Positions 1 through 20,835 are shown, counted from the stretch's first letter. The stretch: 32,000 bases of DNA from Pyrodictium delaneyi (GCF_001412615.1 NZ_CP013011.1:1020001-1052000), one strand, 5' to 3'. Numbers and translations: made by a program. Notes: generated by a model from the sequence alone, not told the origin.

Positions 1-42
1 TATACTGGCGAGCCCTTACCTCTACGCTGTACTATCAAGCGC

Positions 43-1449
43 TTACCCATAGCGTAGCACCCGTCCCCAGTGCGTCGCCCCTGGTATACTCTGACTCTTA
101 ACTGTTATCGGTATAGGGAGTATCTTGAAAGGAATCGCTCTCTGCGCCTGCTGGTAGCGGAGAAGAGCTTCGCCAACACCTAGTCTACGAAGCACATCGA
201 GATCCTCATACACGACACCACTATACCTACTGACATCTCTTATGTATACATCATCTACTGATCCGAACATAATCACATTGCTGATATTATTCCATACTTC
301 AGAGCTATAGTCGCTTGGCTGTTGCGATGAAAGAACGAGACTAATATTGCTACTCCTGCCTTCACGAACTAACCTTCTAACAACATCACTGTTCTTAATT
401 CTCCAAAACTCGTCTATTACAAGTACCGAACTCACACTATTGTTTCGAAGCACATCAAAGATGGTATCTAATATAGTTTCTAGCTGGATATACTTTTCAT
501 TCTCACTTAGATACGCCAAGTCTAATACCATAATACCGTGGAAGCTATCACTAAATAAGTTGGAGACAATTAAGTGATGATAACTATATCCATCCTCTAC
601 TACAACATGTTTTGCTAGTCTGGTCCCCTTCAAAAACCTCCAAACATCTCCCTTGGGATCTACCAACACTGCTTTTACGTCGTAAAGTAACGTAGCCAGT
701 AATGCAACTAGGACTGCAAGGGTTGTCTTCCCCCTACCAGTTGGCCCCACAATTAAAGTATGTTGAGCACCCCTATTATCCCATAAAGGTAGCCCGACAA
801 GTTTTCCCAACACCAGGTCGTGTCCGATAGGAACGGTTTTCACACCATCAAGGATCTTACCTAACATGCGTACATACTCCATCCAACTTAAACTCGAGCC
901 TATAATGCTACTGAGTGATTGAATAATATTCCCACTATTGTTTTTTAAAAAACTCACACTTAGGCATTTACGTTTAGGTTTACAACCAAGTACGGCAAGC
1001 ATATCAATAACACTATTGTAATTTTCTTCAATACTTTTTGTACTACCACATACTAGTATGTATAGTGCCGGCTTGACGGGATCATCATAAACCATAATGT
1101 TTTCATATATCTTCCTAAGCACCTCAAGTTTGTTTCTTGCACGCATATTGTTAGGATTGCGTTCTAGCTCAACCTCGTAGGATAGTATTTTGGACTCTAG
1201 AATCCTCGCAGCATAATTACCTCTAACATGTTTATAGAGTAGCATTATGCCACATATTCTTCTATCCAGTAACTTAGATTTGTTGCCCAGTAGCTTTGTG
1301 AAGCATGTCTCGTCGCCCTTAATCTCGATGAGTACGCCAAGAACGCCATCTGTTAGTTCCGAGACACAAAGAGTATTCACAACTTTATCTCTACCCTTTG
1401 TAAGCTTTACTAGCTTGTATAAATACGTAGCAATGGTACTTATAATCAT
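43..1449 (-). CDS. cedB: VirB4/TrbE-like (FtsK-HerA superfamily) secretion ATPase, CedB-like
   Basis: ORF track 43..1461 (472 aa). Walker A LIVGPTGRGKTT and Walker B VLVIDEFW (DExW as in VirB4/TrbE). VDPKGD and SSQQPSD motifs are typical of this ATPase superfamily. No TM segment. Start moved to ATG 1449, which has GGTGAT 5 nt upstream; 1461 is a TTG. Confidence 0.7.
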   Translation of the reverse strand: MIISTIATYLYKLVKLTKGRDKVVNTLCVSELTDGVLGVLIEIKGDETCFTKLLGNKSKLLDRRICGIMLLYKHVRGNYAARILESKILSYEVELERNPNNMRARNKLEVLRKIYENIMVYDDPVKPALYILVCGSTKSIEENYNSVIDMLAVLGCKPKRKCLSVSFLKNNSGNIIQSLSSIIGSSLSWMEYVRMLGKILDGVKTVPIGHDLVLGKLVGLPLWDNRGAQHTLIVGPTGRGKTTLAVLVALLATLLYDVKAVLVDPKGDVWRFLKGTRLAKHVVVEDGYSYHHLIVSNLFSDSFHGIMVLDLAYLSENEKYIQLETILDTIFDVLRNNSVSSVLVIDEFWRIKNSDVVRRLVREGRSSNISLVLSSQQPSDYSSEVWNNISNVIMFGSVDDVYIRDVSRYSGVVYEDLDVLRRLGVGEALLRYQQAQRAIPFKILPIPITVKSQSIPGATHWGRVLRYG

Positions 1450-1454
1450 GTAAA

Positions 1455-1631
1455 TCACCAACTTAGAGTTCTTTTAACAATCATAAATAGAACAATATTT
1501 ATCAATGATATCAGTATTATTGTTATATTTTTTGAATATAATCCCTCAATAACACCATATAATGATAATGCTAAAGCAATATGTAGAGACCTTCTGAATG
1601 TTATATTCGTTATAGCCTTTGTCTGCTTCAT
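1455..1631 (-). CDS. 58-aa small membrane protein missing from the ORF track (occupies the CedA2-like position)
   Basis: My own minus-strand translation: MKQTKAITNITFRRSLHIALALSLYGVIEGLYSKNITIILISLINIVLFMIVKRTLSW. ATG at 1629-1631, TGA at 1455-1457, GGTGA 6 nt upstream of the ATG. Two hydrophobic stretches. It fills the otherwise empty gap between the flanking genes, and its stop lies 5 nt before the ATPase ATG. Confidence 0.55.
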   Translation of the reverse strand: MKQTKAITNITFRRSLHIALALSLYGVIEGLYSKNITIILISLINIVLFMIVKRTLSW

Positions 1632-1656
1632 CCTAATTCACCTTTACTAAGGCTGA

Positions 1657-3096
1657 TTAGTCGAATATTATGCGGGGCGACGATGCACCTATCAGCCTAG
1701 CAAAACTTATGGTCATCATAGACATTATGGTCAAGTATGAAAATACAGTTACAGGAAACGCGGTTCCGTAGACTATGTAGTACACTATCGCGTCCTCCAT
1801 GGTCATGTTAGGGTAATTGTAGCCTTCACTTATTTCTAAATTATATGTATAGTTATCTATTCTTTTATTGAATTTAATGCTAAGTAATTTGATGCCGTCC
1901 GGTACTCTTAGACTGAAAATTATTGTCCTTACTTGCATACCCCTCCAAGGGTTCGTTAGTTCAACTACATTATATTCTTCGAAGAATTCTCTAGCCGGTG
2001 AAATCATGGTCATATTTGCCTTATCTGGGATAGTAATTGTCAACATTATCCATTTCGATTTAGGCTTACACTGTACATTTATCGTATAAACTGTCTGATG
2101 AATATCAGTTATATTGCAACTTCTGACTATCATTAAGCCTACCGGCTCTATAAAGATTGCATCGCTAACCGTGAAATCTAGCCTATACTCTGCCTCATCT
2201 AATTCATAAGTTAGTCTGGCGTCTTCCGGTATGTTAACTATCGATTTTTCTACTCCTAGGTTGTGACCAAGGTATTCAATCTCCACATGGTATTTGCCGC
2301 TTGGAAGCGCTTTTAGTGGCCTAGTTATGTAGTACCCGCCATCCTCATGTATTACGAATCTATATATTCCATTGTTGCCTATATCTATGAATTTTACTAG
2401 CCCTGTAACCGGTCTATACCCATATTTGTCTCTTACAATACCCCACATGTGTACCAGTGCTATAGACTCTGTATAGTTATGAACAAATACTTCGCTCAAA
2501 TAGCTCGTAGCAAGACTACCATATATCAAGGATATCCAATATGGCAAGAATGGTAGCATTACATTACCTACTATTATAAAGGCGAGAAGCGACGCACCAG
2601 CATTCCTACCTATCCTAAAGGGTATTGCCATAAGTGCTATACCGAGAGCAGCCAGTTTAGCTTTAGCAGCTGAAAGTATACTGGCTATTACTATGACTGT
2701 TGCTGCAGCTGTTAACATGCCATAGTGTACTAACATCATAGGTAACATGTATATGCTAAAGAACTTCCCAATTATACTGTGCACTGATGACAGTACACCA
2801 ACAGTTAAACGTGTGATATATTCCATCATTATTATGGCTTTCATTCGCACTTGCATATATGATACTATACTTTCTACCGTGTGTCCACTCATGCTCGCTA
2901 TGGCGTCAGAAAATTTCAGCATAGCAGTGAATAAGGTGATTAATATACTAGCCCATAGACCGTCTTGTATAAGTAGCGGCGCCCAACGCTTTACGCTACG
3001 TAACGGTATTGGAAGCATGTATACAAGTACACCAATGTAGTATGTCAGTACAGCAAGCTGAGCCGCTATGAGCAGAAAGTATGACACAAGCTGCAC
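1657..3096 (-). CDS. cedA: Polytopic membrane protein, VirB6/CedA-like, with a large beta-rich non-membrane domain and a C-terminal TM anchor
   Basis: 479 aa. GTG start at 3096 with GGTGC about 6 nt upstream. About 6-7 hydrophobic helices in residues 1-200. Residues ~205-430 are hydrophilic and beta-rich (e.g. SGKYHVEIEYLGH, resembling carboxypeptidase-regulatory-like sandwiches). Final TM is AIVYYIVYGTAFPVTVFSYLTIMSMM. Operon position lies between the pilin-like gene and the VirB4-like ATPase. Confidence 0.55.
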   Translation of the reverse strand: MQLVSYFLLIAAQLAVLTYYIGVLVYMLPIPLRSVKRWAPLLIQDGLWASILITLFTAMLKFSDAIASMSGHTVESIVSYMQVRMKAIIMMEYITRLTVGVLSSVHSIIGKFFSIYMLPMMLVHYGMLTAAATVIVIASILSAAKAKLAALGIALMAIPFRIGRNAGASLLAFIIVGNVMLPFLPYWISLIYGSLATSYLSEVFVHNYTESIALVHMWGIVRDKYGYRPVTGLVKFIDIGNNGIYRFVIHEDGGYYITRPLKALPSGKYHVEIEYLGHNLGVEKSIVNIPEDARLTYELDEAEYRLDFTVSDAIFIEPVGLMIVRSCNITDIHQTVYTINVQCKPKSKWIMLTITIPDKANMTMISPAREFFEEYNVVELTNPWRGMQVRTIIFSLRVPDGIKLLSIKFNKRIDNYTYNLEISEGYNYPNMTMEDAIVYYIVYGTAFPVTVFSYLTIMSMMTISFARLIGASSPRIIFD

Positions 3097-3113
3097 GACT
3101 TAGCACCCTAGGC

Positions 3114-3383
3114 TTATGCTGTACCGTTGTAGATGACTGGCGGTGGCGACGCAACGGAGCTAACAATATAGGATACCAGTGCAAATATCGAAGAACCGAG
3201 AGCGAGCCAAAATGCTGCCCATACAGCATCCTCTATGAGGTCTTGTCCGGCACGTTTTACTCTCATGAATGGTATGGGTGAGCCTTTTAGTAGCCAACCT
3301 ATACTCCATGTCAGCAGAAACAGACCCCAGGCTATACTCATGACCTTTATGGTTAGAGAGTTTATGAACTCTATAATGTTCAT
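3114..3383 (-). CDS. cedA1: 89-aa two-helix hairpin membrane protein, VirB2/CedA1 pilin-like
   Basis: Two hydrophobic helices (VMSIAWGLFLLTWSIGWLL and AVWAAFWLALGSSIFALVSYIV) joined by a basic loop (PIPFMRVKRAGQD). First gene of the operon; its stop is 18 nt before the next start. AAGGGG lies just upstream of the ATG. Confidence 0.55.
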   Translation of the reverse strand: MNIIEFINSLTIKVMSIAWGLFLLTWSIGWLLKGSPIPFMRVKRAGQDLIEDAVWAAFWLALGSSIFALVSYIVSSVASPPPVIYNGTA

Positions 3384-3470
3384 AATTCCCCTTAAGATAA
3401 GGTGTATAGCATTTCGCTATTGAGGCTGTGCAGAGTGTAAGTATCCGAACTTGCCACCCTTAAAGATGCT

Positions 3471-3480
3471 TTTATATAAA
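3471..3480. promoter_or_regulatory. Palindromic TATA-like element TTTATATAAA between the Lhr stop and the pilin-like gene
   Basis: The only strong A/T box in the 139-nt gap. It sits ~90 nt upstream of ATG 3383, which would imply a 5' UTR (consistent with the SD-like AAGGGG). It could equally be part of the Lhr 3' T-rich region. Confidence 0.25.
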
Positions 3481-3522: not shown

Positions 3523-6393
3523 TTACTTCTCTAACCTGTGCTTATATTTATGATATTTCACCTCAGCTTCCACGAGTGCACGATAAAATGCTTCTTCTCC
3601 AAATACCAGCTTCTGTAAAACACGTTTCGCTGTATGAACACCTACCCCCGTTGATACTAAAGCTTCTATAGCTTTCTTACCGTAGTTTAATACTAATCCA
3701 GCTGCATCCATTACCTCACGCGAAAGCTTCTTTTCACTATTAGAGAGCCTACTGTTATGTTTTATCTTCTCAAGAACAATTTTGGCAACCTCTATACGTT
3801 CCCTTGATAGTGCTGGATAGATCATTCGGGCGCCACAACGCGGACATTCTATTTTATCGCTGAGATGTGATAGTCTTCTTGACCATGTTTTTCCACACAT
3901 TACACACAAGAAGATTACCTCTTTCGACGACAACTTTCTCTTAATCGCTTCGACTAGTATTGTGGAGGGTAAACTATCAACAGAGACACGATCACCAAAT
4001 CTTGCCTCTGCTACAGCATCTTCTGTTATAGGGGATGTGATCCTTAGACTAACTGTTCTTACTTCAACTTTTTTGTTTCTAATCCTTTCAAGGAATGAAT
4101 ATAGAGCATTGATGTCTACTTTTCTTACGTTTATCTCCTTATACGCCTCCTCACCAAGTATAGTATCTTTCAATTTTAGAATAATAGTTTTTATCTGTTT
4201 CAAATTAGTCTCTCTAGTTCTTTTCACAGCGCCTGCACGGAGAGCAACATAGAGTAAAATCCACTGATAGAGCCGACTTCTATAGATAGCCTTACGTAGT
4301 AGATTATCTACATCCTCACGTGTAAAGCTGGCAAGTTTCATCAACGAATCAGCTATAAAACTAGGCCTTTCATGAGATGCCAGCCTAACAGCCACAATGT
4401 ATGGTGTACTCGTAGTTACTGGCGAGTAACCTTTAATCTCAGATATGTAGGCAGATAGTAAATATTCAAGAGCCTTATTACCACGGCTACCGAGGAAACT
4501 ATATATAATGAATGTATCCCCATAGTGCTCTATTACTATTCTTTTATCTGTCGGTAGCGGCAAACCTTTTGATATATGTCTAGTTATTCTGTCTACAATT
4601 ATTCTTCTCGCATTATCATCTAGCGGATAATTGTCTAATACTCTTTCACCAATTTCTTCGTAACGTCGCAAGATGCTACCAAGTTCTCGCGCAACTCCAT
4701 ATTCTACGGGGATTAGGTCACCCTCCCATGCCGGAGGTATTAGACGGTCCTCTCTAGCGGGTTTCACTCTCACATGATCTTCACTGATATCTACTACCTC
4801 CCAGACACGTCCACCTAGTACGAACTTGTCCTCCTTCTCTAGAGTTGCTACAAACTCCTCATCGAGAACACCGAGTTTCTTGCCGCTAGCTACCTCGTAA
4901 ACATTATACTGCCTAGTATCCGGTATCATAGTAACACTAAAGTAGTAGCTCTTACTCATAGACCCTATTGACACTCTTGACTCCTTTGCTCTGGCTATCC
5001 GAGAGCTATCCATATAGTATAATATCTGATATAACTCATCTATGCTAAGATCTCTATAATAACCACTGCTTGTTATAACATTGTAAAGTTTATTTACATC
5101 AATTTCACCAGACTCTATAATCATACCAGCCACTTGATGAATAAGGGCATCATAAGGTTTGTTGTAGAGTGGTATATTCTCCAAGTTACCCCTCATAGCT
5201 CTAGCCGCTATAACTGCAGATTCCAATATATCAAATATGTTGTTAGACGCTACTATTACTCCTCTGGAAACACTGCCCGCTCTATGTCCTGCACGACCTA
5301 CCCGCTGGACAAGCTTCACAACTTGCCTAGGCGACATGTATTGTATAACAAGATCAATACTACCTATATCGATACCAAGTTCAAGACTCGACGTAGCTAC
5401 AAGTGCTTTTATCTTACCGCTCTTAAGCTTCTGCTCAGCGTCTACACGTTTATCACGGCTAAGGCTTCCATGATGCACCTCTATAAACTCGTCACCCACA
5501 ACTTGTTTTAGTAATGCACCTAGAACCTCTGCAGTATCACGAGTGTTTACAAACACTATCACGTTTCCTCGACTCTTTGCAAGGATATTCTTGATTAGAT
5601 TTACTCGTGTCAACGTTTCATTATGAACTCTAGAACGTACGCTGTTAGTGTCATTATTGCTATTCTTAGAGCTATCTCCCGGTGCTGTAACTAGTATACT
5701 ATAACGTTTTTTCGTCTTCTCAGCCTCAATTATCCTGACATATCTTTCACCCATGATTAACTTAGCAACTAGGTATGGATTACTCACAGTGGCTGAAAGA
5801 CCTATAAGCTGGAGCCTAGCCTTAGTATATAACCTAGCAACGCGTTCTAGTGCTAAGGATAGTTCTGCTCCTCGTTTATCTGAAACCAGTTCATGAATCT
5901 CATCAATAACTATATATTTAAGGTTATTTATATTATGTCTGAATTTTTCTACACTAAGTAAGAAGTAGAATGATTCTGGTGTTGTTACCATTATGTGCGG
6001 TGGATTCTCGAGGAACCTTCTCTTCTCCGCAGTAGTACTATCTCCATGCCTAACCTCGAGATCTAGACCAAGACTCGAAGCTATACCTGACATTCGCTTG
6101 AATATATCACGGTTAAGACTACGTAAAGGAGTAATGTATATGCAATATATGCCTCTGGAACGTACACCTATGAGTCTCGAGAGTACGGGAAGAAGGGCGG
6201 CTTCAGTCTTACCACTGCCTGTCGGCGCTATAACTAACACGTTGTTACCTCTAAGAATCTCTGGTATGGCCTTATCTTGTATCTCGGTAGGTTTTACGTA
6301 CCCGTGTTTCTCTAGTACACGCTGAAGTAGCGGGTGTAGCAGTCTAAACGCTCCACTTACTCTACGCTTCTCAATTCTCTCCTGCGCGTTCAT
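3523..6393 (-). CDS. lhr: Lhr-type (aLhr2-like) superfamily-2 DEAH helicase with C-terminal zinc ribbon
   Basis: 956 aa. Motif I APTGSGKT, motif II DEIHE, motif III SAT, motif VI QRVGRAGH. Long DEAD-associated C-terminal region with CVMCGK...CPRCG (CxxC-x17-CxxC). Confidence 0.85.
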   Translation of the reverse strand: MNAQERIEKRRVSGAFRLLHPLLQRVLEKHGYVKPTEIQDKAIPEILRGNNVLVIAPTGSGKTEAALLPVLSRLIGVRSRGIYCIYITPLRSLNRDIFKRMSGIASSLGLDLEVRHGDSTTAEKRRFLENPPHIMVTTPESFYFLLSVEKFRHNINNLKYIVIDEIHELVSDKRGAELSLALERVARLYTKARLQLIGLSATVSNPYLVAKLIMGERYVRIIEAEKTKKRYSILVTAPGDSSKNSNNDTNSVRSRVHNETLTRVNLIKNILAKSRGNVIVFVNTRDTAEVLGALLKQVVGDEFIEVHHGSLSRDKRVDAEQKLKSGKIKALVATSSLELGIDIGSIDLVIQYMSPRQVVKLVQRVGRAGHRAGSVSRGVIVASNNIFDILESAVIAARAMRGNLENIPLYNKPYDALIHQVAGMIIESGEIDVNKLYNVITSSGYYRDLSIDELYQILYYMDSSRIARAKESRVSIGSMSKSYYFSVTMIPDTRQYNVYEVASGKKLGVLDEEFVATLEKEDKFVLGGRVWEVVDISEDHVRVKPAREDRLIPPAWEGDLIPVEYGVARELGSILRRYEEIGERVLDNYPLDDNARRIIVDRITRHISKGLPLPTDKRIVIEHYGDTFIIYSFLGSRGNKALEYLLSAYISEIKGYSPVTTSTPYIVAVRLASHERPSFIADSLMKLASFTREDVDNLLRKAIYRSRLYQWILLYVALRAGAVKRTRETNLKQIKTIILKLKDTILGEEAYKEINVRKVDINALYSFLERIRNKKVEVRTVSLRITSPITEDAVAEARFGDRVSVDSLPSTILVEAIKRKLSSKEVIFLCVMCGKTWSRRLSHLSDKIECPRCGARMIYPALSRERIEVAKIVLEKIKHNSRLSNSEKKLSREVMDAAGLVLNYGKKAIEALVSTGVGVHTAKRVLQKLVFGEEAFYRALVEAEVKYHKYKHRLEK

Positions 6394-6396
6394 AGT

Positions 6397-8328
6397 GTGT
6401 TATTTCACCCTTGTAGCACTACCTTTGCAGCTAGAACCTGGGGGCGCCGCGTTTTGACCAAAGGTAATACCAGCTTATTTACTCGTCTACTATTACTCTC
6501 AATAATCTCGACAACATTGATACTCTTATCTAGAATAATGGATCCTCGCCTATCTATACTACTCTCGACAATATCAACACTACTGGTGCTGGTCGCTAGA
6601 TCCATAATTATTGCGATAGCTGCACTAATCTACAACATTACACTTATACTTTATGTCGTGCCACTGTCACTTACACATAACACCATTATGCAATTAACCT
6701 TGGAGAAAGATGCTTATAGCACAATAATTATTCTGGCAGAAACGACACTCATAGCAATTATGATTGTAACCAAGGTGATGTCATCTCTACGTTCCAAATA
6801 TCATATTGATACATTTATTCGTAATATAGCATATGTTGGCGTGAAAGATGTACTAATATACGCCTTATGTTGTAGACGAAGCTATATCGCGTTATCACTG
6901 ATAACTGCATCTGCTGCTGTATATTCCCTTTCTTCTACTTCACCACTATTCTATACACATAGTGATATGCTGTGCTCCCTTTTACTCTACACTTCCATGG
7001 CATTGGTGCCATTCGCAGTCATACTGGCATCAATAGAAATTTCTGCCACCATTACCGCTATACTTGTAACAGTAGCTGCTGTTGTAGCACCTCAACCCTT
7101 GCTCTTAATGGCGTTTATAGCTATGCTTCCCATAGAGACTACACCAGTCACAATTAAGCTCAAAAAGCGAAACGGGTTTAGCATTGGTTATCTCGAGGCA
7201 GTTCTAGTTGATTCACCTTCACTAAAGTATAATATAGAAGGCCAGAAGTCTTTCTCTACAACACGTAGCTGGTGGTCACCCGCATATCCTACATCATCAT
7301 GGTATAGTGTTAAAATAACTGTAAAAGAGAATCCCCACATCATCGTGACGGGGACTACAGGGTCAGGGAAATCCTTTACAGCAATGCAGTTGACAAGAGC
7401 TATATTGGAGAAATTTGACAATAAAGCAGTACTCATAGTTATAGACCCGCACGGCGAGTATAAGAATCTACTAAACAACCATACAGTAGATATTAGAGTC
7501 GTAGATGCCTCCCAAGAAGCTCCTAACCCCCTGGAACTCATTGGACGAAGCCCACGAGAGCGGGCAGCCGAGCTTGTAGAACTCGTTTCGGAGTTCTACA
7601 ACCTAGGTCCAATTCAAGCAAGGATACTAGAGGACGCCATACTACTATCATACGAGAATGCCGGCATAAGGGATGATGATCCGTCAACGTGGGGGAGATC
7701 GCCACCAACGATTAGAGATGTAATCGCGATACTCGAAGACATGTCTAGACAAGACGCTCGCGCACGCATCGTAGCTATGTACCTGTCGTCTCTAGCGGCA
7801 AAAGCCTTTAGCCAAGACCGTTTACCATTTCCGACACCAGATAGCAGCCTTAGCGCTATTATTTTCGACCTATCTCGGCTAGCTACACGCGAACAGATGG
7901 TACTCTACACTGAAACAATATTATATAAATTGTATAACTTGGTTAAGGCGCTCGGTCCTGCAGATAGTCTACGTTACATACTCCTAGTAGATGAAGCACA
8001 CATTTTCGCGCGTAAGACATCACGGAAAAGAGCAGTCCTACCCTTGATTGCCGCAGAGCTGCGTAAGTATGGTGTCGCATTGATCCTCGTAACTCAACGG
8101 GCAAGCGAACTAGATGAAACAATACTCGCCAATATGGGTACATATATATGTCTAAAACATACAGACACCAGAGAGTCTAAGTTCATAGCAGAGGTTGTAT
8201 CCAAAAACCCTTTGAATAATGACGCTAAAGAGATCCTAGTATATACTTTATCGATTCTACCTAAAGGTTATGCAGTTGTAGGCGATATAGAGATTGAGAC
8301 GCCTCTCCTAGTTAAGCTTCAAGAATGA
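6397..8328 (+). CDS. Membrane-anchored HerA/FtsK-superfamily (DUF87-like) ATPase
   Basis: N-terminal ~250 aa contain ~6-7 hydrophobic helices. The C-terminal half has Walker A VTGTTGSGKS, IDPHGEY, Walker B LLVDEAHIF and LILVTQRASELD (HerA/DUF87 hallmarks). The true start is uncertain: 6397 is a GTG only 3 nt from the divergent Lhr start, and ATG 6538 (MDPRLSIL...) is an alternative. Confidence 0.75.
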   Translation: MLFHPCSTTFAARTWGRRVLTKGNTSLFTRLLLLSIISTTLILLSRIMDPRLSILLSTISTLLVLVARSIIIAIAALIYNITLILYVVPLSLTHNTIMQLTLEKDAYSTIIILAETTLIAIMIVTKVMSSLRSKYHIDTFIRNIAYVGVKDVLIYALCCRRSYIALSLITASAAVYSLSSTSPLFYTHSDMLCSLLLYTSMALVPFAVILASIEISATITAILVTVAAVVAPQPLLLMAFIAMLPIETTPVTIKLKKRNGFSIGYLEAVLVDSPSLKYNIEGQKSFSTTRSWWSPAYPTSSWYSVKITVKENPHIIVTGTTGSGKSFTAMQLTRAILEKFDNKAVLIVIDPHGEYKNLLNNHTVDIRVVDASQEAPNPLELIGRSPRERAAELVELVSEFYNLGPIQARILEDAILLSYENAGIRDDDPSTWGRSPPTIRDVIAILEDMSRQDARARIVAMYLSSLAAKAFSQDRLPFPTPDSSLSAIIFDLSRLATREQMVLYTETILYKLYNLVKALGPADSLRYILLVDEAHIFARKTSRKRAVLPLIAAELRKYGVALILVTQRASELDETILANMGTYICLKHTDTRESKFIAEVVSKNPLNNDAKEILVYTLSILPKGYAVVGDIEIETPLLVKLQE

Positions 8329-9647: not shown

Positions 9648-10409
9648 CTATATGCGTGGCGATACCCAGTATATTAATGTGCCTCCGCTTGGCAAGTCAA
9701 AGCTTATCCTCATTGGAAGCGCTTCACCGTATTGCACTGTAACTGTATCGGCAGCCGTTGTAGCCTTTACACTCGCCTTTAGCAGATCTATCGAGTACTT
9801 AGCTTTGACTGGCGTGTTACCAGTAACATCCAGGCTTATGAGGGGCTCACCGACCCGTAGTACTCCCATGTAACGTTTCTGAGCAGACTCTGCATAAACC
9901 TCAATCCTATCCTCATAACTGCTAAACTCTACCTCATCACTAACTATCTTGGCATCATTTATTATGTTCTTGAAGTCGTCCGCCATCATGCGCGCCGTAA
10001 CTGTGAGTTCTACCTGCGGTTCACTAAACTCCTCTACTACGCCCTCACGCAACGGAACGTAGAAACTACGCACTACACCAGTCTTCTTATCTATGAAGTT
10101 TACTTCTAGACGCCTACGTTCTTCATCAAGCTTTAACTCTACTAGGTCATTGCGCGTCCCCCTCTTAGCTATACGGTTAAGCTCGTCAGCTGGCACAATG
10201 AACGTCTTCTTATCCTCATCTAGCTCATATTCCTCGAAAGCCACCATTGGCAACCGTAGTATTATCATAGTAGTCTTATCAGGTGTTAAAGTTCTCACAT
10301 CGATGCCGTCCTGAGTTGCTATGAATGGTATCTCATCCATAACTTTGGCTATTGTCTGGATTATATACTTGAACTTAGTTGCAGCTGGGTATACTGCTCG
10401 AAAGCCCAT
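9648..10409 (-). CDS. pcn: DNA polymerase sliding clamp PCNA
   Basis: 253 aa. PCNA-like sequence throughout by eye (FRAVYPAATKFKYIIQTIAKVMDEIPFIATQDGIDVRTLTPDKTTMI...). Length and two-domain repeat pattern fit archaeal PCNA. Which crenarchaeal paralog it is cannot be told. Confidence 0.85.
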   Translation of the reverse strand: MGFRAVYPAATKFKYIIQTIAKVMDEIPFIATQDGIDVRTLTPDKTTMIILRLPMVAFEEYELDEDKKTFIVPADELNRIAKRGTRNDLVELKLDEERRRLEVNFIDKKTGVVRSFYVPLREGVVEEFSEPQVELTVTARMMADDFKNIINDAKIVSDEVEFSSYEDRIEVYAESAQKRYMGVLRVGEPLISLDVTGNTPVKAKYSIDLLKASVKATTAADTVTVQYGEALPMRISFDLPSGGTLIYWVSPRI

Positions 10410-10488
10410 AGTATCCCCGCTAGGAGAAAACTGGAAGAGGAACCAGCTTTACTATTTCCGACACCTGAGGTATAGGGTCAACTATGCA

Positions 10489-10563
10489 ATGATGCAGCTC
10501 TACCCGCCTCGAGCCCCTCACACATGACGGTTGAGGGGCAGTGAGGACCTTACCACCGGCTGA
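10489..10563 (+). ncRNA. Candidate C/D-box sRNA with an internal hairpin between D' and C'
   Basis: ATGATGC (C, 1 mismatch) - 12 nt - CTCG (weak D') - 29 nt with a perfect 8-bp hairpin - GTGAGGA (C', 1 mismatch) - exactly 12 nt - CTGA (D). Lies in the 178-nt gap between two minus-strand genes. Confidence 0.35.
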
Positions 10564-10587
10564 GCCTTCTCTCAGTTTAGCCATGCT

Positions 10588-11379
10588 TTAGAGCACCTCT
10601 AGCCCCTCCGCGCGCGCTATATCCCTAAATCGCTGTGCATCTTCTCCCATGTACACATTGTTGAACATTATGTAAACTTCTTCAAACCTATATTCATCTA
10701 TATAGCCTCGTACAATCCCGACAAGCCTTCTTAGGTCTTCATCTGTGTATTTGTATTTGTAGTTCACTTCTCTTCCACCAATACCGTGAAGACGTAGATA
10801 CAGAATCTTCTGGCCACTACACACTACTGGTTTTCTCCTAAACGGGTCAACAACATGTATGACTCCTACCCCGCATATTATGTCTTCCAGTATGTCTCTG
10901 TGTTCGTGCCAGTCCCCGCGAGGCTCCCATCCAATAACTATTGTGTTACCCGTATAGCGCGTTGCCAGCATGGAGAACTCCTTAGCGTTTTTGACATTTG
11001 TTTCACTATAGCTGAAGCTTGGTGGCGTCTGCAGCACTACTACTCTTGCACCAAGTATTCTTGCAGCCTCAATAGTCTTTATCCATGCATCTATATTCTC
11101 CTTTGTCGGCTTTAAGTAACCATAGTTCTCTATATTGCCTGTCGGCTTTATACCAGCCCGCCGCCACGTAGGACTTGAGGCTGGATGAGTTATAACCTGC
11201 CACGCTTTAATGTTGAAGACAAAGCTATTAGGCGCCTCTCTACGCCATCGCTCAAGCGTGCTCTTCTGCGGCAGCTTGTAGAATGTTTGCTGTACCTCAA
11301 CGGTATTGAACAACGTGTAGTATTTCTTGCGTGAGAAGGGGAAGCCACAGCAACCAACAAAAACTTTCACACCATCCAT
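10588..11379 (-). CDS. DUF72 (UPF0759) family protein
   Basis: 263 aa. N-terminal VGCCGFP and a later LYLRLHG motif. TIM-barrel-like pattern typical of DUF72. Confidence 0.7.
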   Translation of the reverse strand: MDGVKVFVGCCGFPFSRKKYYTLFNTVEVQQTFYKLPQKSTLERWRREAPNSFVFNIKAWQVITHPASSPTWRRAGIKPTGNIENYGYLKPTKENIDAWIKTIEAARILGARVVVLQTPPSFSYSETNVKNAKEFSMLATRYTGNTIVIGWEPRGDWHEHRDILEDIICGVGVIHVVDPFRRKPVVCSGQKILYLRLHGIGGREVNYKYKYTDEDLRRLVGIVRGYIDEYRFEEVYIMFNNVYMGEDAQRFRDIARAEGLEVL

Positions 11380-11397
11380 GGGGTCCCCTAGTTCCTA

Positions 11398-11820
11398 TTA
11401 GCGCTGGAGAGGCCTGACTTGTATGAATCGGACTTCGTCTAGCTTTGATAGCTCTGTCTTGACCGCATCTATGTCTATACCACTCCGCGATAAATCTATT
11501 ATTATTATACACTCTGCATACTCACCCCGCTTGACAGTAGTACACTGCGTGGTGACTTGATCTACATTAAGCTCGGCCAGTTTCTCAGATGCTTTAGCTA
11601 ACGCACCCGGCACATCTTTAAATTCGATACGCATTTCGAAGAGCTTGCCCTCAGCGCTCGGCAACGGCGTTAATACGATCTCACGCTTATCAGGGTCAGC
11701 TATTAGTATAAGGTTCATACCCTCGATGATGTTTAAAGCTTCCCGAACTACCAGAGGTATTGTCACCCTACCCTTGCTATCAACTTTTACTATCTCAGCT
11801 AGCCGCACTCCTACCACCAT
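11398..11820 (-). CDS. AbrB/SpoVT-like DNA-binding domain fused to an ACT domain
   Basis: 140 aa. N-terminus VKVDSKGRVTIPLVVREALNI (swapped-hairpin AbrB/MazE signature). C-terminus IEFKDVPGALAKASEKLAELNV...IIIIDLS is ACT-like. Confidence 0.7.
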   Translation of the reverse strand: MVVGVRLAEIVKVDSKGRVTIPLVVREALNIIEGMNLILIADPDKREIVLTPLPSAEGKLFEMRIEFKDVPGALAKASEKLAELNVDQVTTQCTTVKRGEYAECIIIIDLSRSGIDIDAVKTELSKLDEVRFIQVRPLQR

Positions 11821-11867
11821 TCCACATGTGGAAATGTAATGAAATAATATAACTTTTTGTCAACACC

Positions 11868-12740
11868 CTACCTGTCCATGTTTTTCTCGACAATCTCTAC
11901 TATTTTCTCTGCAAGCTCTAGTATTGCTTTCGACGCCTTGCTGTCAGGATACTTTACAAAGAATGGCTCGCCGGCATCATTGGCTCGTGATATACGTGGA
12001 TCTATGGGTATCTCGCCGAGGAACCGCACACCGTACTGCTCTGATATCTTCTTAGCTGCACCTTCGCCAAAGATGTAGTGTTTACTACCATCAGGGCATT
12101 CAAAGTAGCTCATGTTCTCTACCACCCCTATTATGTCTACGTTCATCTTACGCGCAAAGTTAATCGCTTTAGCTACGACGACACGAGAGACATCAGATGG
12201 TATTGTAACTATTATTGTGCCGGTAAGATCACGTATAAGCTGCGCTATTGTGAGCTGTTCATCTCCTGTACCTGGCGGGAGATCTATGAACAAGTAATCG
12301 AGTGTACCCCAGTCCGCGTATGCCAACATCTCACGGATAGCTGATGTAGATAAGGTTCCACGCCATATTACTGGCACATCTTCTTGTGGGAGCAGCAGGC
12401 CTATTGAGAGAACCTTTACACCGAGCGGCGCTGTTACTGGTATTATTCTACCATCAGTTGTGGCCATAACTGTTTCTCCTTGTACCCCCATCATCTTTGG
12501 TATCGATGGACCGTAGATGTCGGCGTCTAGCACTCCTACTTTTCTACCTAGATAACTCATAGCGAAGGCCAAGCTAGCAGTGACAAATGATTTACCTACA
12601 CCACCTTTACCGCTGAGGATCGCAACCTTGTACTTAATCTTCTTCATGTTTTCTTGTATCTTTTTCTCTTGTTCACGTATCTTTTTGAATGCCTCTATAC
12701 GCGCTTTAACTTCTGGCGGAATCCTCTGCTGTGACTCCAT
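11868..12740 (-). CDS. Mrp/NBP35/ApbC-family Fe-S cluster carrier ATPase
   Basis: 290 aa. Deviant Walker A ILSGKGGVGKS, DLPPGTGDE switch region, and a CPDG motif after ENMSYFE. Confidence 0.85.
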   Translation of the reverse strand: MESQQRIPPEVKARIEAFKKIREQEKKIQENMKKIKYKVAILSGKGGVGKSFVTASLAFAMSYLGRKVGVLDADIYGPSIPKMMGVQGETVMATTDGRIIPVTAPLGVKVLSIGLLLPQEDVPVIWRGTLSTSAIREMLAYADWGTLDYLFIDLPPGTGDEQLTIAQLIRDLTGTIIVTIPSDVSRVVVAKAINFARKMNVDIIGVVENMSYFECPDGSKHYIFGEGAAKKISEQYGVRFLGEIPIDPRISRANDAGEPFFVKYPDSKASKAILELAEKIVEIVEKNMDR

Positions 12741-12926
12741 ATAGCTTCCCCTAATCGTGGATTCACTACATCTCCGTGTATAGGCTCTACACGATATAAC
12801 GTATTATATTCACACCCTAGTATACTACCACTTAGCAACCTAAGCCAGCAATAGACATGTAAGATAGACCTACTAGTAGCACATAGTCCTATAAGGCAGG
12901 CTGGGGTATAACGAGGGCTACAAGCT

Positions 12927-13610
12927 ATGAGACGAAGTAATCTAGTCAAAAGAACGCTTGCCGTTACTATGTTGAACTACTTGCACAAATTCTACACATA
13001 CAAAGAACTCAGCAAGAAGCTTTCAATACCACAATCTATGATAAGCAGGTATATACGCGGACACAACCTCCCAAGTGAGTATCACGCAGATGCAATAATA
13101 GACTTCTTCATGAAAAGTAGCATCGTTAGAGATTACCTTGGCAAACTCCTTTCTAGAGGCGCTATAGACGAGATAGTCTCAGATAACGACCTACTTGAGA
13201 TATTGGCATTTATATCTCTAGAGAAAGCACGTAAAATAGATCCAGTATTTGATTATATAGTTATAATTAATGATATTTCCTCATTTATAGGTTTGCGCAT
13301 AGCATCACAACTTAGAGCTAAAGTAATTGTTGGATTCATTCCTCCACTCGTCCCTCCCGGTGCAGATCTATGTATAACTATAGGACAGTACATTAATTCG
13401 TTAACTATATGCTTAAAAGCAAGAAATATCGGCAAACTACGTAGATCTAGTGCACTCTTTGTACACCCTCTAACATTACCACTTGAATATAGCATTCATG
13501 TGAAAAGTAAACTCATGGACTTCTTTGGGAATATACGCATACTTGCACCGTTATGCAATAGCAATCTAGATGACGAAAAGATAATCTGCGGCTTTATAAC
13601 GGAGAGCTAG
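12927..13610 (+). CDS. HTH-domain putative transcriptional regulator with uncharacterised C-terminal domain
   Basis: 227 aa. YTYKELSKKLSIPQSMISRYIRGHNLP is an XRE-like HTH. The C-terminal half faintly resembles a phosphoribosyltransferase fold but lacks an acidic PRPP motif (ALFVHPLTLP). Confidence 0.5.
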   Translation: MRRSNLVKRTLAVTMLNYLHKFYTYKELSKKLSIPQSMISRYIRGHNLPSEYHADAIIDFFMKSSIVRDYLGKLLSRGAIDEIVSDNDLLEILAFISLEKARKIDPVFDYIVIINDISSFIGLRIASQLRAKVIVGFIPPLVPPGADLCITIGQYINSLTICLKARNIGKLRRSSALFVHPLTLPLEYSIHVKSKLMDFFGNIRILAPLCNSNLDDEKIICGFITES

Positions 13611-13642
13611 GGTAAATTGTATAGTTGAGAGGCCATTCAGCG

Positions 13643-14143
13643 ATGACCGGGGTTTTAAACACTGATTTACAAGATGATGTCGAACCCACGCAGGGAGCAC
13701 GCTTCTGCAACAATATACTTAGATCGCGAAGCTTAGAGCTAGAGGCATATGCTGAGATAAATGACTGCAAATTACTAATAGTGTATGCTCCAAGTATTTC
13801 TGCAGAAGAGTCAACACCACTACTTGTTGGCTGCATCTATCATGCAATACTACCAATAGATGCTTATGCCACACCAAAACTATTGGAACACGGCGTACTC
13901 ATAGCTACACCATTACGTAACAGAAAAGTAGTAGCACGCATAAACAATCTAGATATAGAGCATACATCATACATATACAAAGACGGCTCGATACTTATCC
14001 TAGTAACCACTAACAGCAATGCCTTGGAAGAAATAATTGATTTCACAAATACTATAGACTTTAATAATATCAACTATTTCTGTGTTAATTCGTTTAACGA
14101 ACTTCCTGATAAAATATATGATGTATTACCTAGCCACAAATAG
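13643..14143 (+). CDS. Hypothetical protein (166 aa)
   Basis: ORF track 13625..14143 begins with TTG; the first ATG is at 13643. AT-rich gene. No motif recognised. Confidence 0.45.
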   Translation: MTGVLNTDLQDDVEPTQGARFCNNILRSRSLELEAYAEINDCKLLIVYAPSISAEESTPLLVGCIYHAILPIDAYATPKLLEHGVLIATPLRNRKVVARINNLDIEHTSYIYKDGSILILVTTNSNALEEIIDFTNTIDFNNINYFCVNSFNELPDKIYDVLPSHK

Positions 14144-14195
14144 CTACATGACAACTATAATACAGTGATGGTTTCAAACCGGCGGAGATGTTGCG

Positions 14196-15809
14196 GTGAG
14201 CAAACAATTGTACCTGAGGTTTAAGATATGCCGTTGGCTCGATAAGGACGAGTTCAAGGACCTAGTCAGATTGGCTTCTTATATTGGTAGGCGTGATGGC
14301 TGCAGCTGGTTCGAGATTAGTTTTAGCAACTCACATGTAGACAAGTTGCTTGATCTACTAGATTCTCTGAAAACATTTGGAGCTGAGTTTGATCAAAGAT
14401 CTAAGCAAATTGTAGATAAACTTCTGGCTGAAGCCAATACTGTTGAAATAGATGCTTCTACTTCAGGATTCCTAGTAAGATCTAGAAGGCTTCTCTTAGA
14501 TTACCTCTCCACTTTCCGTGCAAAAGGCTTAGTTAGGTATTCAAGAAATTACAGAGGCTTTATAGTTAAACCATATGCTATTGTAGATGTCATTGACCGG
14601 TTACAACGCGAAGGATTTAAGGTGAAAGATAATACTGGTCTCCTTTATTCCAAGAAAACTCTCAACATAGTGTTTAATGGTAAGTTACGTAGCTACCAGG
14701 AGGAGGCCATCAATGCCTGGCGTGAGAACCGCTATAGAGGTGTAATAGCTCTACCTACTGGATCTGGTAAAACCATAGTGGCATTAGCAGCCATGGTTAC
14801 TCTATCCGTCCCTACACTCATAGTTGTTTATACACGCGAACAGCTGAATGAATGGGCTGAAAAGATAGTCAAGTTTACTAATCTTGATAAAAATAATATA
14901 GGACTATTCTATTCTGAACAAAAATCTATTAAATTAATTACTATAGCTACATATCAATCTGCCTTTAGAAATATAGATATATTATTCGACAAGTTCTCAT
15001 TACTGATAGTTGATGAAGCACATCATTTACCTGCAGAAAAGTTCAGAGCAATTGCCGAGTCTATACTAGCCCCTTACAGGCTTGGATTATCCGCGACACC
15101 ATATAGAGAAGACGGGCGTCACGAAGAACTCTTCCGACTTGTAGGAGGTGTTGTATACGAACGTTCTCTTAGTGAGCTATTAGAGGAAGGATTCATCGCC
15201 TCTTTCGAGATCGTACCGGTACTTGTCCAGCTCGAAAGAAAGGAATTCGAAGAGTATAAAAAGTTAAAGAAAAAGTTTATAGTTATGGCGCGTGGAAGGA
15301 AGGTGGACGAGCTCGTTAAAGCAGCCTCCGCAGGCGACGATTCAGCTAAACAAGCTCTTCAATTACTCTCACGCATAAGACGTGTCCTAGCGTTATCTAA
15401 ATCCAAGGTAGAGGAGGCACGACGAATCGTTGAAAACGAGCTTGCAAAGGGCTCAAAGATAATAATATTTACACAGTATGTTGATCAAGCTGAGACTATA
15501 GGAAAGGAGCTTGGCATCCCTGTGGTCACAGGCAAGACAGAGAAACACAAACGGAGGATAATCTTCGAGTTATATAAGCGTGGACGTTTCAGAGCCATAG
15601 TCTTGACCACCGTTGGCGATGAAGGCATTGATATACCAGATGCCAATGTAGGAATAGTTTTGTCTGGAACTTCCTCGCGTAGACAGTTCATCCAGAGACT
15701 CGGGAGATTGCTTAGACCCCAACCAGGTAAGGTGGCAAAGCTATACTATATTGCTGTAAAGGGGACTCAAGAAGAAACAGCTCTTAAAAAGCTTCTCAAT
15801 TCTATATAA
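14196..15809 (+). CDS. xpb: XPB/Rad25 (SF2) DNA repair helicase
   Basis: 537 aa, GTG start. Motif I ALPTGSGKT, motif II VDEAHH, SATPYREDG (the XPB RED motif), motif VI QRLGRLLR. N-terminal ~150-aa damage-recognition-like domain. Confidence 0.85.
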   Translation: MSKQLYLRFKICRWLDKDEFKDLVRLASYIGRRDGCSWFEISFSNSHVDKLLDLLDSLKTFGAEFDQRSKQIVDKLLAEANTVEIDASTSGFLVRSRRLLLDYLSTFRAKGLVRYSRNYRGFIVKPYAIVDVIDRLQREGFKVKDNTGLLYSKKTLNIVFNGKLRSYQEEAINAWRENRYRGVIALPTGSGKTIVALAAMVTLSVPTLIVVYTREQLNEWAEKIVKFTNLDKNNIGLFYSEQKSIKLITIATYQSAFRNIDILFDKFSLLIVDEAHHLPAEKFRAIAESILAPYRLGLSATPYREDGRHEELFRLVGGVVYERSLSELLEEGFIASFEIVPVLVQLERKEFEEYKKLKKKFIVMARGRKVDELVKAASAGDDSAKQALQLLSRIRRVLALSKSKVEEARRIVENELAKGSKIIIFTQYVDQAETIGKELGIPVVTGKTEKHKRRIIFELYKRGRFRAIVLTTVGDEGIDIPDANVGIVLSGTSSRRQFIQRLGRLLRPQPGKVAKLYYIAVKGTQEETALKKLLNSI

Positions 15810-15947
15810 GTCCTACAAACCACTATCCATGGCCAGGTATAGGGTTATGTTATGACTAGGCTAGGCTGTATTCGGAAGATAGGCGCGTAATGCAATATAA
15901 GGCGTGGTGTTGCAGCATTGGCGATAGGAGAAGGAGGGGCTACTTGT

Positions 15948-16958
15948 ATGAGCAGTGGCAGTCTACAATTGTACCTTAGCGGCAACGGTAATATTGATCT
16001 ATTGTATGATAATAGCTTGCCAGAGATAACTCTTGGAGGGGCGGGACACCCCACTAGCTATACAGTTACATTCGAACATATATTAAAGACAAGATCCATA
16101 GATAAGGCTCTTCTCGAGCTAGGCATTAGAGTAGCATCCATGGAAATACCTAGGTGGAAGATATCATTTAACGATGTTGTGCTCACACGGGAGTTCAAAC
16201 CTTTACTCTGTGTTGAGATAAGCAATGGGTACTTCTGCAAGATAGTTTTCGATGTGACACCCATTGTAACTTCAAAGGATAGCAGCCAACACAAAGTAGA
16301 CATAGAATACATCGGTGTAAAAGAATTATCTATAGATCACATAGGTCTTCTCATGCTGGGCTCCTATGAAGAAGCTATGTCGATCTATAGTTATTGGAGC
16401 GGCGCTGTATCTCTCCAACCTGGATCAGCGACAGATATCGAGCTTCCGTACGAGTTCGAGCATGCAAAGGCAAAGATTATCGCTTATCTACCTCACAGCG
16501 ATGCCAAGTTACTCATTAGTTCTGACTCTGTTAACACTATAATAGAGAGAACAACTGGTATGAACGAGTTAATTGTTGATCTGGGCACAACCAAGAGGTT
16601 AAAGCTTGAGCATAGAGGAACTGGCAGTTACTACCCAAGGGAGATACTGTTGTCATCTATCCTTGTGTACCAGATGAACGTTCCTGAGCCCAGCATAGAT
16701 GTAAATCATAGAATTGTAAACGATATTGCCGAGATACAGTTATCTAACAGCGGCAGTGATGCAGCCGAGAATGTTGTTGTAGTATCTATAGCTGTTGGAA
16801 ATGTTATAGACAGAAAGGTCCTGGGTAAGCTTGAGCCCGGCGATGCTAAGAAGCTACAGCTCAAGATAAAGCATGGAGCTATAAATACGATTCGTGTAAT
16901 ATGGAAACATAGGGGCAAGACGTTCTTTAAGGACTTAAAAGTTAGAACCGAAAGCTAA
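15948..16958 (+). CDS. Hypothetical protein with C-terminal CARDB-like beta-sandwich
   Basis: ORF track 15918..16958 (TTG). ATG 15948 is preceded by GGAGAAGGAGGGG. The C-terminus IAEIQLSNSGSDAAENVVVVSIAVGNVIDRKVLGKLEPGDAKKLQLKI resembles CARDB domains. No signal peptide seen. Confidence 0.5.
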   Translation: MSSGSLQLYLSGNGNIDLLYDNSLPEITLGGAGHPTSYTVTFEHILKTRSIDKALLELGIRVASMEIPRWKISFNDVVLTREFKPLLCVEISNGYFCKIVFDVTPIVTSKDSSQHKVDIEYIGVKELSIDHIGLLMLGSYEEAMSIYSYWSGAVSLQPGSATDIELPYEFEHAKAKIIAYLPHSDAKLLISSDSVNTIIERTTGMNELIVDLGTTKRLKLEHRGTGSYYPREILLSSILVYQMNVPEPSIDVNHRIVNDIAEIQLSNSGSDAAENVVVVSIAVGNVIDRKVLGKLEPGDAKKLQLKIKHGAINTIRVIWKHRGKTFFKDLKVRTES

Positions 16959-16979
16959 CTCCATATCCTCATAGTCACA

Positions 16980-17036
16980 GTGATGAATTACTCCCGGACA
17001 GACTATGCAAGAGATGAAGAGAACTTACCCAGCTGA
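16980..17036 (+). ncRNA. Candidate C/D-box sRNA (57 nt)
   Basis: GTGATGA (perfect C) - 12 nt - CAGA (D') - 11 nt - ATGAAGA (C') - 12 nt - CTGA (D). Lies in the 90-nt gap between convergent genes. The D guide is complementary to a conserved 23S rRNA motif as I remember it. Confidence 0.45.
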
Positions 17037-17048
17037 GCTCTACACTAC

Positions 17049-17486
17049 TCATTTCATAAACTTCCTAAGTCCAGTATTTGTGACTATGGCGATGAATTCA
17101 TCCAAACTTACTCCATTGTTTAATACTTCATCGTCTATCCTAATTCTACCGGTATTTGTCTCCTTGACTTGATCTATGGGTATAAGCTTCCATCCCTTGT
17201 GTGGTCTCTTTACAGCTATTAATGGAGTTGCGCCCGCCCGCCGTGAAAATTCGATAAGCTTCTCTAGCTGTGTCCTATCTATGTATATTGGCGCATTATC
17301 ACGCCTATACTTAACTTCTATTGCATATATTCTTCCTTTAAAGATTGCGACTATATCTGGATATGCTGCTAGCCTGGTTCTAGCCCCACTAGCTGGTGCT
17401 CTTATGACTGCAAAACCTTTACTCCAGAGCTTTCTTACCAGCTCTCTTTCGGCTTCGAATCCTCTTCTACGCCTGGCATTGTCCAT
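17049..17486 (-). CDS. hjc: Holliday junction resolvase Hjc
   Basis: 145 aa. GFEAERELVRKLWSKGFAVIRAPASG...PDIVAIFKGRIYAIEVKYR matches the archaeal Hjc catalytic core (E...PD...ExK). Confidence 0.9.
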   Translation of the reverse strand: MDNARRRRGFEAERELVRKLWSKGFAVIRAPASGARTRLAAYPDIVAIFKGRIYAIEVKYRRDNAPIYIDRTQLEKLIEFSRRAGATPLIAVKRPHKGWKLIPIDQVKETNTGRIRIDDEVLNNGVSLDEFIAIVTNTGLRKFMK

Positions 17487-17507
17487 ACTTCTCTCCCGTC
17501 ACATACC

Positions 17508-19067: not shown

Positions 19068-19216
19068 GGCTCTTTACAGCCCCCAACGAAGACTACGCAT
19101 CGGGCTGGCCCTATAGCTCTAATTCTTACCACTATCAGCCTCACACTGTTTTAGGTTCGCTTAGCTCCCTGCTGGAGTGCGCCTAGCATCCTCTTCTGAT
19201 TTTTCGGGCGAATGCA

Positions 19217-20794: not shown

Positions 20795-20835
20795 AAAACA
20801 TATTTCAATTAAACTCACTATTGTTATGTTCTTAG

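Follow-up and report, generated by a model that had tools for sequence, protein, structure and literature searches.

A probable chromosomal Ced apparatus in Pyrodictium delaneyi and comparative features of its locus

A 32,000-nucleotide (nt) stretch of the Pyrodictium delaneyi chromosome (NZ_CP013011.1:1020001-1052000, assembly GCF_001412615.1; hereafter the window, whose positions serve as coordinates throughout) was analysed in this study, with a focus on a compact operon at 43-3383 on the minus strand that probably encodes a Ced (crenarchaeal exchange of DNA) apparatus. The operon comprises cedA1 (Pyrde_1033, 3114-3383), which starts with ATG and encodes a VirB2-type two-helix hairpin pilin of 89 amino acids (aa); cedA (Pyrde_1032, 1657-3096), encoding 479 aa from a GTG start; an open reading frame (ORF) of 58 aa with an ATG start (Pyrde_1031, 1455-1631), whose product is a hairpin of two transmembrane (TM) segments and which is the positional equivalent of cedA2; and cedB (Pyrde_1030, 43-1449), encoding a VirB4/HerA-type ATPase of 468 aa from ATG, or of 472 aa from an alternative TTG at 1461. 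All four products are identical to public P. delaneyi proteins, which RefSeq names, from Pyrde_1033 to Pyrde_1030, "DNA import protein CedA1", "hypothetical protein", "hypothetical protein" and "ATP-binding protein". An earlier sequence-only reading had proposed four co-directional minus-strand genes here, and all four ORFs lie where it placed them; its expectation that annotation would leave the proteins hypothetical holds for the three products not named as Ced and fails for the pilin, already called CedA1 in RefSeq.

The genes are separated by gaps of 17, 25 and 5 nt (the first had been given as 18), and the Shine-Dalgarno-like motifs GGTGC/GGTGA that had been noticed 5-6 nt before the starts of the three internal ced genes are present in each case. 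Because the exact products occur in public collections and the gene string recurs in dozens of diverged genomes, the four ORFs are real genes rather than chance ORFs. A TATA-like box read from the sequence, TTTATATAAAA (3470-3480, minus strand), lies about 87 nt upstream of the cedA1 ATG and is a candidate operon promoter within the 139-nt gap between lhr and cedA1. At the other end of the operon, the 5' end of rpl2 (MGKRLIVQRRGKGSPV..., 1-50, minus strand, identified from sequence and translation) runs into cedB: the rpl2 ATG (50-48) overlaps the final codons and the stop of cedB (ATGGGTAA at 50-43), which suggests that cedB and rpl2-rps19 are co-transcribed or translationally coupled. Because of this overlap, ced expression is probably at least partly constitutive and not strictly damage-induced.

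The CedA1 pilin scores 131.5 bits against the NCBIfam equivalog NF041797 (cut-off 100), and its residues 2-73 align to 8dfu_B, the CedA1 pilus of Aeropyrum pernix determined by cryo-electron microscopy, with an E value of 2.1e-25, which confirms the pilin hairpin that had been proposed for this 89-aa protein. A search of the PDB with E values up to 10 returned 8dfu and no other pilin entry, the TedC entry remaining unmatched. Seven orthologues share 26 invariant alignment columns. An N-terminal signal sequence is absent, and the hairpin starts at about residue 3.

The 479-aa CedA had been described as a polytopic membrane protein; the membrane helices are indeed present, while residues ~212-430 form a beta-rich soluble domain. 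Its N-terminal membrane domain (residues 1-207; 2476-3096, minus strand) is defined by a match to the CedA model NF041796 and by the helices at residues 2-207 of an AlphaFold (AF2) model, which was built from 20 homologues and has a whole-model predicted local distance difference test (pLDDT) score of 83.9. Residues 4-197 match NF041796, a model of 259 positions, with 126 bits and an E value of 1.4e-36, which is below the cut-off of 330 bits; this cut-off is narrow, because even a short Sulfolobaceae-type CedA from our locus set falls below it (237 bits). Similar to what has already been published for CedA proteins, the first ~65 residues are CedA1-like, and the CedA family profile matches 8dfu (E value 7.8e-6).

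Between the sixth long helix and the last TM helix of the AF2 model sits the beta-rich insert of ~220 residues (residues ~212-430; 1807-2463, minus strand), modelled as two immunoglobulin (Ig)-like beta-sandwich domains with strands between residues 217 and 427. It is followed by the C-terminal TM helix (residues 433-469; 1690-1800, minus strand) and a conserved tail, G-A-x-x-P-R-I; this C-terminal block is conserved in the family alignment. Evidence for the fold of the insert is weak, consisting of tandem-Ig matches at E values of ~0.01 in a Foldseek search of the PDB with the CedA model and of sub-threshold profile matches to filamin, SdrD and carboxypeptidase regulatory domains; PF13620 (CarboxypepD_reg) was found in some CedA homologues. 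The insert is probably extracellular, because the K/R-rich loops 27-38 and 155-165 (with invariant R161 and R164) are placed across the membrane from it, N-X-S/T sequons are enriched in the insert (1.24 per 100 residues versus 0.13 in the rest of a 20-sequence CedA alignment), and the insert contains conserved Cys columns. P. delaneyi CedA itself has five such sequons, three of them inside residues 212-430 and the others at 207 and 430.

Among curated families, the ATPase encoded by Pyrde_1030 is best matched by CedB (NF041017), with 84 bits against a cut-off of 700; CedD reaches 32 bits, VirB4 24 bits and the HerA models 14-27 bits. An exhaustive profile search with CedB retrieved 749 relatives, and the CedB model matches 56 of the nearest 60; one of these 60, reached by the family profile at an E value of 4.5e-19, passes the CedB cut-off with 761 bits. 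The Walker A motif GPTGRGKTT (747-721) and the Walker B motif DEFW (414-403), both reported by the sequence-only reading, occupy invariant columns in a 60-sequence alignment (G235, P236, G238, G240, K241, D346, E347 and W349), and further columns of the catalytic site are invariant as well. The AlphaFold model of CedB is of high confidence (pLDDT 90, predicted template modelling score 0.85), and its top seven Foldseek matches in the PDB are all R388 TrwK/VirB4 chains, with E values from 4.8e-17 (8rtb_A) to 4.3e-14 and TM-scores relative to the query (TMq) of 0.54-0.58; these alignments span 455-575 columns and include the N-terminal domain. Structural matches to HerA are weaker and come after VirB4 (TMq of 0.41-0.46 versus 0.57). 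NurA, Mre11 and Rad50 were not found nearby in family scans of the window. Pyrde_1030 probably belongs with CedB and not with the NurA-associated HerA proteins. It had been called soluble, and there is no clear TM anchor; its N-terminal helix (residues 2-17) is short and weakly hydrophobic, with a pLDDT of ~62, and for that reason CedB may attach peripherally to the membrane.

To compare gene order, a CedA1 alignment was searched against one genome per species, which gave 80 loci; with the loci fetched earlier and the window itself, 82 non-redundant loci were analysed using purpose-built hidden Markov models (HMMs). The gene order expected to be conserved in relatives proved to be so: cedA follows cedA1 in all 77 of 77 loci, and cedB lies within 700 nt after cedA in 55 of 68 informative loci, from four families. 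The order cedA1-cedA-(small ORF)-cedB is kept in Pyrodictiaceae, Desulfurococcaceae, Acidilobaceae and Caldisphaera. CedA has at least 440 aa in 72 loci and fewer than 300 aa in three, all Sulfolobaceae-type (~267 aa, without the insert); the norm is a long CedA, from which the short Sulfolobus protein departs. Directly after cedB stands rpl2 in 33 of 55 loci, and in a further 10 of the 55 it is found within 5 kb on the same strand; at 16 of 27 junctions the rpl2 start overlaps the cedB stop or lies at most 5 nt from it. The position between lhr and rpl2 is held in genomes whose CedA proteins are only 25-40% identical. This constancy, together with the cedB-rpl2 overlap, indicates vertical inheritance at a fixed chromosomal site, and the ced genes are a vertically inherited chromosomal locus rather than a mobile element. 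As a separate observation, there may be a correlation between the short CedA, the possession of Ups pili and the lack of visible Ced pili in Sulfolobus.

We read the operon at 43-3383 as the chromosomal Ced apparatus of P. delaneyi, a domesticated minimal type IV secretion-like machine, and assign a probability of roughly 0.87 to this interpretation. The set CedA1, CedA, CedA2 and CedB that had been named from the sequence is retained for the pilin, for the CedA-type membrane domain and for the CedB clade of the ATPase, with CedA2 represented by position only. Ced is known to import DNA in Sulfolobus, and the A. pernix CedA1 builds a pilus of the conjugative type (PMC9905601); by analogy with these systems, we infer DNA import for the P. 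delaneyi genes. Earlier work describes Ced from Sulfolobales, Desulfurococcales and Acidilobales; according to a 2024 preprint, all Pyrodictiaceae carry CedA1 homologues and hence endogenous Ced machinery (bioRxiv 10.1101/2024.12.30.630787).

Several points weigh against this identification. CedA1 alone passes its curated equivalog cut-off, while CedA reaches 126 of 330 bits, CedB 84 of 700 bits, and the 58-aa ORF gives no CedA2 match. No match of CedA to VirB6 was obtained in sequence, profile and Foldseek searches against the PDB, and the relationship between the two rests on published HHpred results. For the ATPase, proposed earlier as VirB4-like and CedB-type, the curated family and the structural matches uphold the proposal, whereas the profile search alone ranks HerA, DptH and FtsK chains above VirB4 for the CedB family. 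The published view of CedB as a HerA-like ATPase core joined to a VirB4-like N-terminal domain fits both the profile and the structural results. Furthermore, the window shows no genes for Ups pili that would account for cell contact in P. delaneyi.

The CedA1 pilus could instead serve mainly in adhesion, cell-cell contact or the export and donation of DNA, with the CedA ectodomain acting as an adhesin or recognition module. According to the literature, CedA1 and CedE of Saccharolobus also contribute to export, and the cannulae of Pyrodictium may carry DNA (bioRxiv 10.1101/2024.12.30.630787). Lineages without Ups pili need other means of contact, and the long CedA with its Ig-like ectodomain is the form found outside Sulfolobaceae, at 72 long versus three short proteins. 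The sole available genetics, from Sulfolobales, nevertheless show that CedA and CedB are required in the recipient for import, and no sequence feature specifies the direction of transfer; we consider a main role in adhesion or export unlikely.

Much less probable is that these are genes of an integrated conjugative plasmid or element whose apparatus exports the element's own DNA. VirB2-, VirB6- and VirB4-like proteins are parts of conjugation machines, and positions 1001-3000, covering cedA, the small ORF and the 5' part of cedB, have the lowest G+C content of the window (35.6-39.4%, versus 37.0-49.3% elsewhere). Because ced synteny is conserved, this low G+C content is more probably due to the composition of membrane proteins than to a foreign source. 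None of the scanned window ORFs of at least 100 aa was identified as an integrase, a relaxase, VirD4 or a replication or partition gene, although several have no family match at all; the sole tRNA gene lies 20 kb away. The locus stays between lhr and rpl2 despite the 25-40% identity of CedA, and cedB often overlaps rpl2. Its fixed chromosomal position and the lack of mobile-element genes among the scanned ORFs rule out an integrated conjugative element for practical purposes, in agreement with the earlier proposal of a chromosomal machine rather than an integrated plasmid. We give equally little credence to the ATPase being a HerA-type repair helicase that stands by chance beside unrelated genes for small membrane proteins in a DNA-repair cluster: HerA chains match it well by sequence profile and many genes for repair and replication occur in the window (Lhr, PCNA, XPB, Hjc, PINA and PolB), but CedB outscores the HerA models (84 versus 14-27 bits), the full-length fold is nearer to VirB4 than to HerA, NurA, Mre11 and Rad50 are missing nearby, and the ATPase is invariably coupled to cedA1 and cedA across families. 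A defence system was also considered and rejected: PADLOC returned only generic ATPase-domain matches to HerA, mad8 and DndH and BrxHI-type (Lhr-like) helicase matches, and the conserved housekeeping position of the locus speaks against such a role.

Pyrde_1031, the small ORF of the Ced operon, has two hydrophobic segments. In Pyrodictiaceae and Desulfurococcaceae, the interval from cedA to cedB holds homologues of 52-74 aa with like architecture, which often overlap the cedB start. Mutual identity among them is only 8-32%. An HMM of this family gave 46 matches in 6199 ORFs, all of them positional and several absent from the training set. The same HMM weakly matches (E value 1.4e-3) the ORF that follows cedA in a Sulfolobaceae-type locus, an ORF that in turn matches the NCBI CedA2 model with an E value of 3e-8. 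Pyrde_1031 itself gives no match to the CedA2 model NF041798, and an hhalign comparison of the small-ORF family with Sulfolobaceae CedA2-like ORFs is weak (probability 13%, E value 0.002). Pyrde_1031 is therefore best described as the positional equivalent of CedA2, with homology unproven; a putative CedA2-like ORF is widespread outside Sulfolobales. VirB3 is reportedly absent from archaea, and CedA2 has been described as not conserved.

Other identities for the small ORF were rejected. For VirB3, VirB2 or CedA1 there is no support, as no member of the family matches a relevant Pfam model and hhalign against CedA1 was empty. A detached CedB membrane anchor is not supported either, as the small-ORF HMM misses every CedB N-terminus and several loci combine the small ORF with N-terminal TM helices on CedB. 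A number of loci from Acidilobaceae and Caldisphaera are without the small ORF and have a cedA-cedB gap of at most 20 nt. In loci without the small ORF, every CedB has an N-terminal hydrophobic helix, and many CedB proteins that follow a small ORF lack one; this complementarity is only partial.

Compared with the A. pernix Ced system (PDB 8DFU; Beltran et al., 2023, PMC9905601), the P. delaneyi pilin is ~60% identical over 72 residues (E value 2e-25). Both systems have a pilin without signal peptide and a chromosomal operon with CedA and CedB, and both hosts are traditionally placed in Desulfurococcales, with no Ups pili genes visible in the P. delaneyi window. A. pernix has been reported to be without CedA2, whereas P. 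delaneyi has the conserved 58-aa ORF at the CedA2 position. In Sulfolobus acidocaldarius and Saccharolobus islandicus, Ced consists of CedA1, CedA, CedA2 and CedB together with CedD and CedE. Shared with P. delaneyi are the four protein types and the order cedA1-cedA-cedA2 (in both respects the small ORF counts by position only), the CedA1-like N-terminus of CedA and the presence of a second, membrane-anchored CedB-like ATPase. Different from P. delaneyi, where CedA has 479 aa with the ~220-residue beta-sandwich ectodomain and cedB is inside the operon, Sulfolobaceae-type CedA has 266-268 aa, and the Sulfolobus cedB (Saci_0748) is reported far from Saci_0567-0569. P. delaneyi CedB furthermore lacks a clear TM anchor, its locus shows fusion to rpl2 and linkage to lhr, and the scores of CedA, CedB and CedA2 are far under the NCBI equivalog cut-offs.

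Among conjugative machines, CedB best superposes on TrwK/VirB4 of the R388 type IV secretion system, whose inner-membrane complex consists of TrwL/VirB2, TrwI/VirB6, TrwM/VirB3 and TrwK/VirB4 (PDB 7O41 and 8RTB). Both have a pilin that forms a hairpin, a polytopic protein as platform and, just before the ATPase gene, a gene for a small TM protein, as in virB3-virB4. However, P. delaneyi has no VirB5, VirB7-11, VirD4 or relaxase among the scanned window ORFs, and its system is chromosomal, non-mobile and presumably importing. Weak TrwB/TraD matches in the window cover the P-loop region only, and no sequence-level match of the P. delaneyi ced proteins to the VirB2, VirB3 or VirB6 families was obtained. 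Similar to Ced, the Ted system of Thermoproteales (TedA, TedB and TedC) is a domesticated, chromosomal, minimal type IV secretion-like machine beside repair genes, which are HerA, Rad50 and ParA in Ted and Lhr in P. delaneyi. The P. delaneyi pilin differs in matching 8dfu and not TedC and in having no cleavable signal peptide, and the components of Ced and Ted are reported to have no recognisable sequence similarity.

Upstream of the operon lies lhr (Pyrde_1034, 3523-6393, minus strand), encoding an Lhr-type helicase of 956 aa with the Pfam domains DEAD, Helicase_C, WH_Lhr and DEAD_assoc and a C-terminal zinc ribbon. In 14 of 62 loci lhr is the immediate upstream neighbour of cedA1, and in seven more it lies in the flank; it is a linked gene and a possible member of the Ced system. 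No paper connecting Lhr with DNA import turned up in a literature search. Beyond lhr, and divergent from it and from the ced operon, is Pyrde_1035 (6454-8328, plus strand), annotated as "ATP-binding protein", with 624 aa from the annotated TTG and other possible starts at 6397 and 6538. Its polytopic N-terminal region is followed by a DUF87 ATPase domain that matches the CedB family in hhalign at 99.95% and the CedD model NF053655 with 60.7 bits over the whole ATPase domain (cut-off 600). All 17 of 17 members of the Pyrde_1035 family match CedD (with E values no stronger than 1.9e-27), far under the cut-off, with similar scores for HerA models. Linkage favours the CedD assignment: 20 of 55 loci have a family member upstream of cedA1, in every case on the other strand, and in one locus without lhr it directly abuts cedA1. 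Consistent with previous studies describing CedD as a membrane-anchored CedB paralogue that is required for DNA import (PMC11868833, PMC11823120) and that accompanies CedB in most Desulfurococcales, Pyrde_1035 is a candidate CedD; the assignment stays at that level because CedD scores are far below the cut-off and HerA models score similarly. A relationship of its TM domain to CedA was rejected (hhalign negative), and among long relatives sought as bona fide CedD for comparison, 10 of the 10 tested were CedB.

Based on the Sulfolobus and Aeropyrum models, CedA1 hairpins would be pulled out of the membrane and assemble, together with lipids, into a thin pilus of the VirB2 kind, under which CedA, VirB6-like with its CedA1-like hairpin N-terminus, would provide the membrane platform and channel. 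The two-domain ectodomain of CedA would probably be exposed on the outer side of the membrane, either surrounding the base of the pilus or within the S-layer space; it may help to stabilise a pilus that is truly extracellular or, in lineages without Ups pili, mediate contact. Translated just before CedB, the 58-aa hairpin is probably a stoichiometric membrane partner, CedA2-like or VirB3-like, that may tether CedB to the membrane. CedB, as a VirB4-like hexameric ATPase, would power pilus assembly and/or DNA translocation, probably together with the CedD-like ATPase. The likely cargo would be single-stranded chromosomal DNA from a neighbouring cell, destined for recombinational repair. Lhr may process the transferred strand, and both it and the CedD-like ATPase are plausible additional parts.

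More speculatively, lineages without Ups pili (Pyrodictiaceae and Desulfurococcaceae) might possess a larger and differently wired Ced that combines four features, a proposal that we regard as possible though rather doubtful as a whole. The two-Ig ectodomain of CedA may support an extracellular pilus or partner recognition that replaces Ups pili; the hairpin of 52-74 aa, translationally coupled to CedB, may be a VirB3-like adaptor; a divergent CedB paralogue and Lhr may process the transferred strand instead of a relaxase; and the whole unit may be co-transcribed with rpl2-rps19 and hence constitutive.

The novelty of the operon was overestimated in the sequence-only reading. Because RefSeq already names the pilin CedA1 and the preprint cited above (bioRxiv 10.1101/2024.12.30.630787) reports Ced in all Pyrodictiaceae, the P. 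delaneyi operon is a correct identification of an already known system and not a discovery. The complete Pyrodictium operon only fills in the annotation, in which three of four products are still labelled hypothetical or ATP-binding. The increments are comparative, namely the long CedA, the CedA2-like ORF, the linked CedD-like gene and lhr, and the cedB-rpl2 overlap, for which a limited literature check found no match. We know of no conjugation-type machine other than Ced that cells have domesticated for the import of chromosomal DNA in repair. The ectodomain, the CedA2-like gene, the linked CedD-like and Lhr proteins and the fusion to rpl2 are more useful than confirmation of the operon: they give concrete candidates for what prepares or receives the DNA strand and for how species without Ups pili make contact, and they suggest a regulation unlike the ultraviolet-inducible Sulfolobus paradigm.

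The remainder of the window includes a run of replication and repair genes at 9648-23865, with PCNA (9648-10409, minus strand), the XPB helicase (14196-15809, plus strand), the Hjc resolvase (17049-17486, minus strand), the PINA branch-migration ATPase (17508-19067, minus strand) and a family-B DNA polymerase (20836-23865, minus strand). Just 3' of XPB, an ORF of 346 aa (15918-16958, plus strand) has no Pfam or NCBIfam match, and by position a Bax1-like partner nuclease is possible. A tRNA-Arg gene with anticodon GCG (23989-24066, plus strand) is the sole RNA gene that ARAGORN and Rfam searches identified in the window. At the window edge lies an ORF for a MoxR-type AAA ATPase (bpMoxR/AAA_5; 30833-31999, plus strand). 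Four of the compared loci have a MoxR/VWA pair a few kb past rpl2-rps19, which indicates that the wider neighbourhood is only partly conserved.

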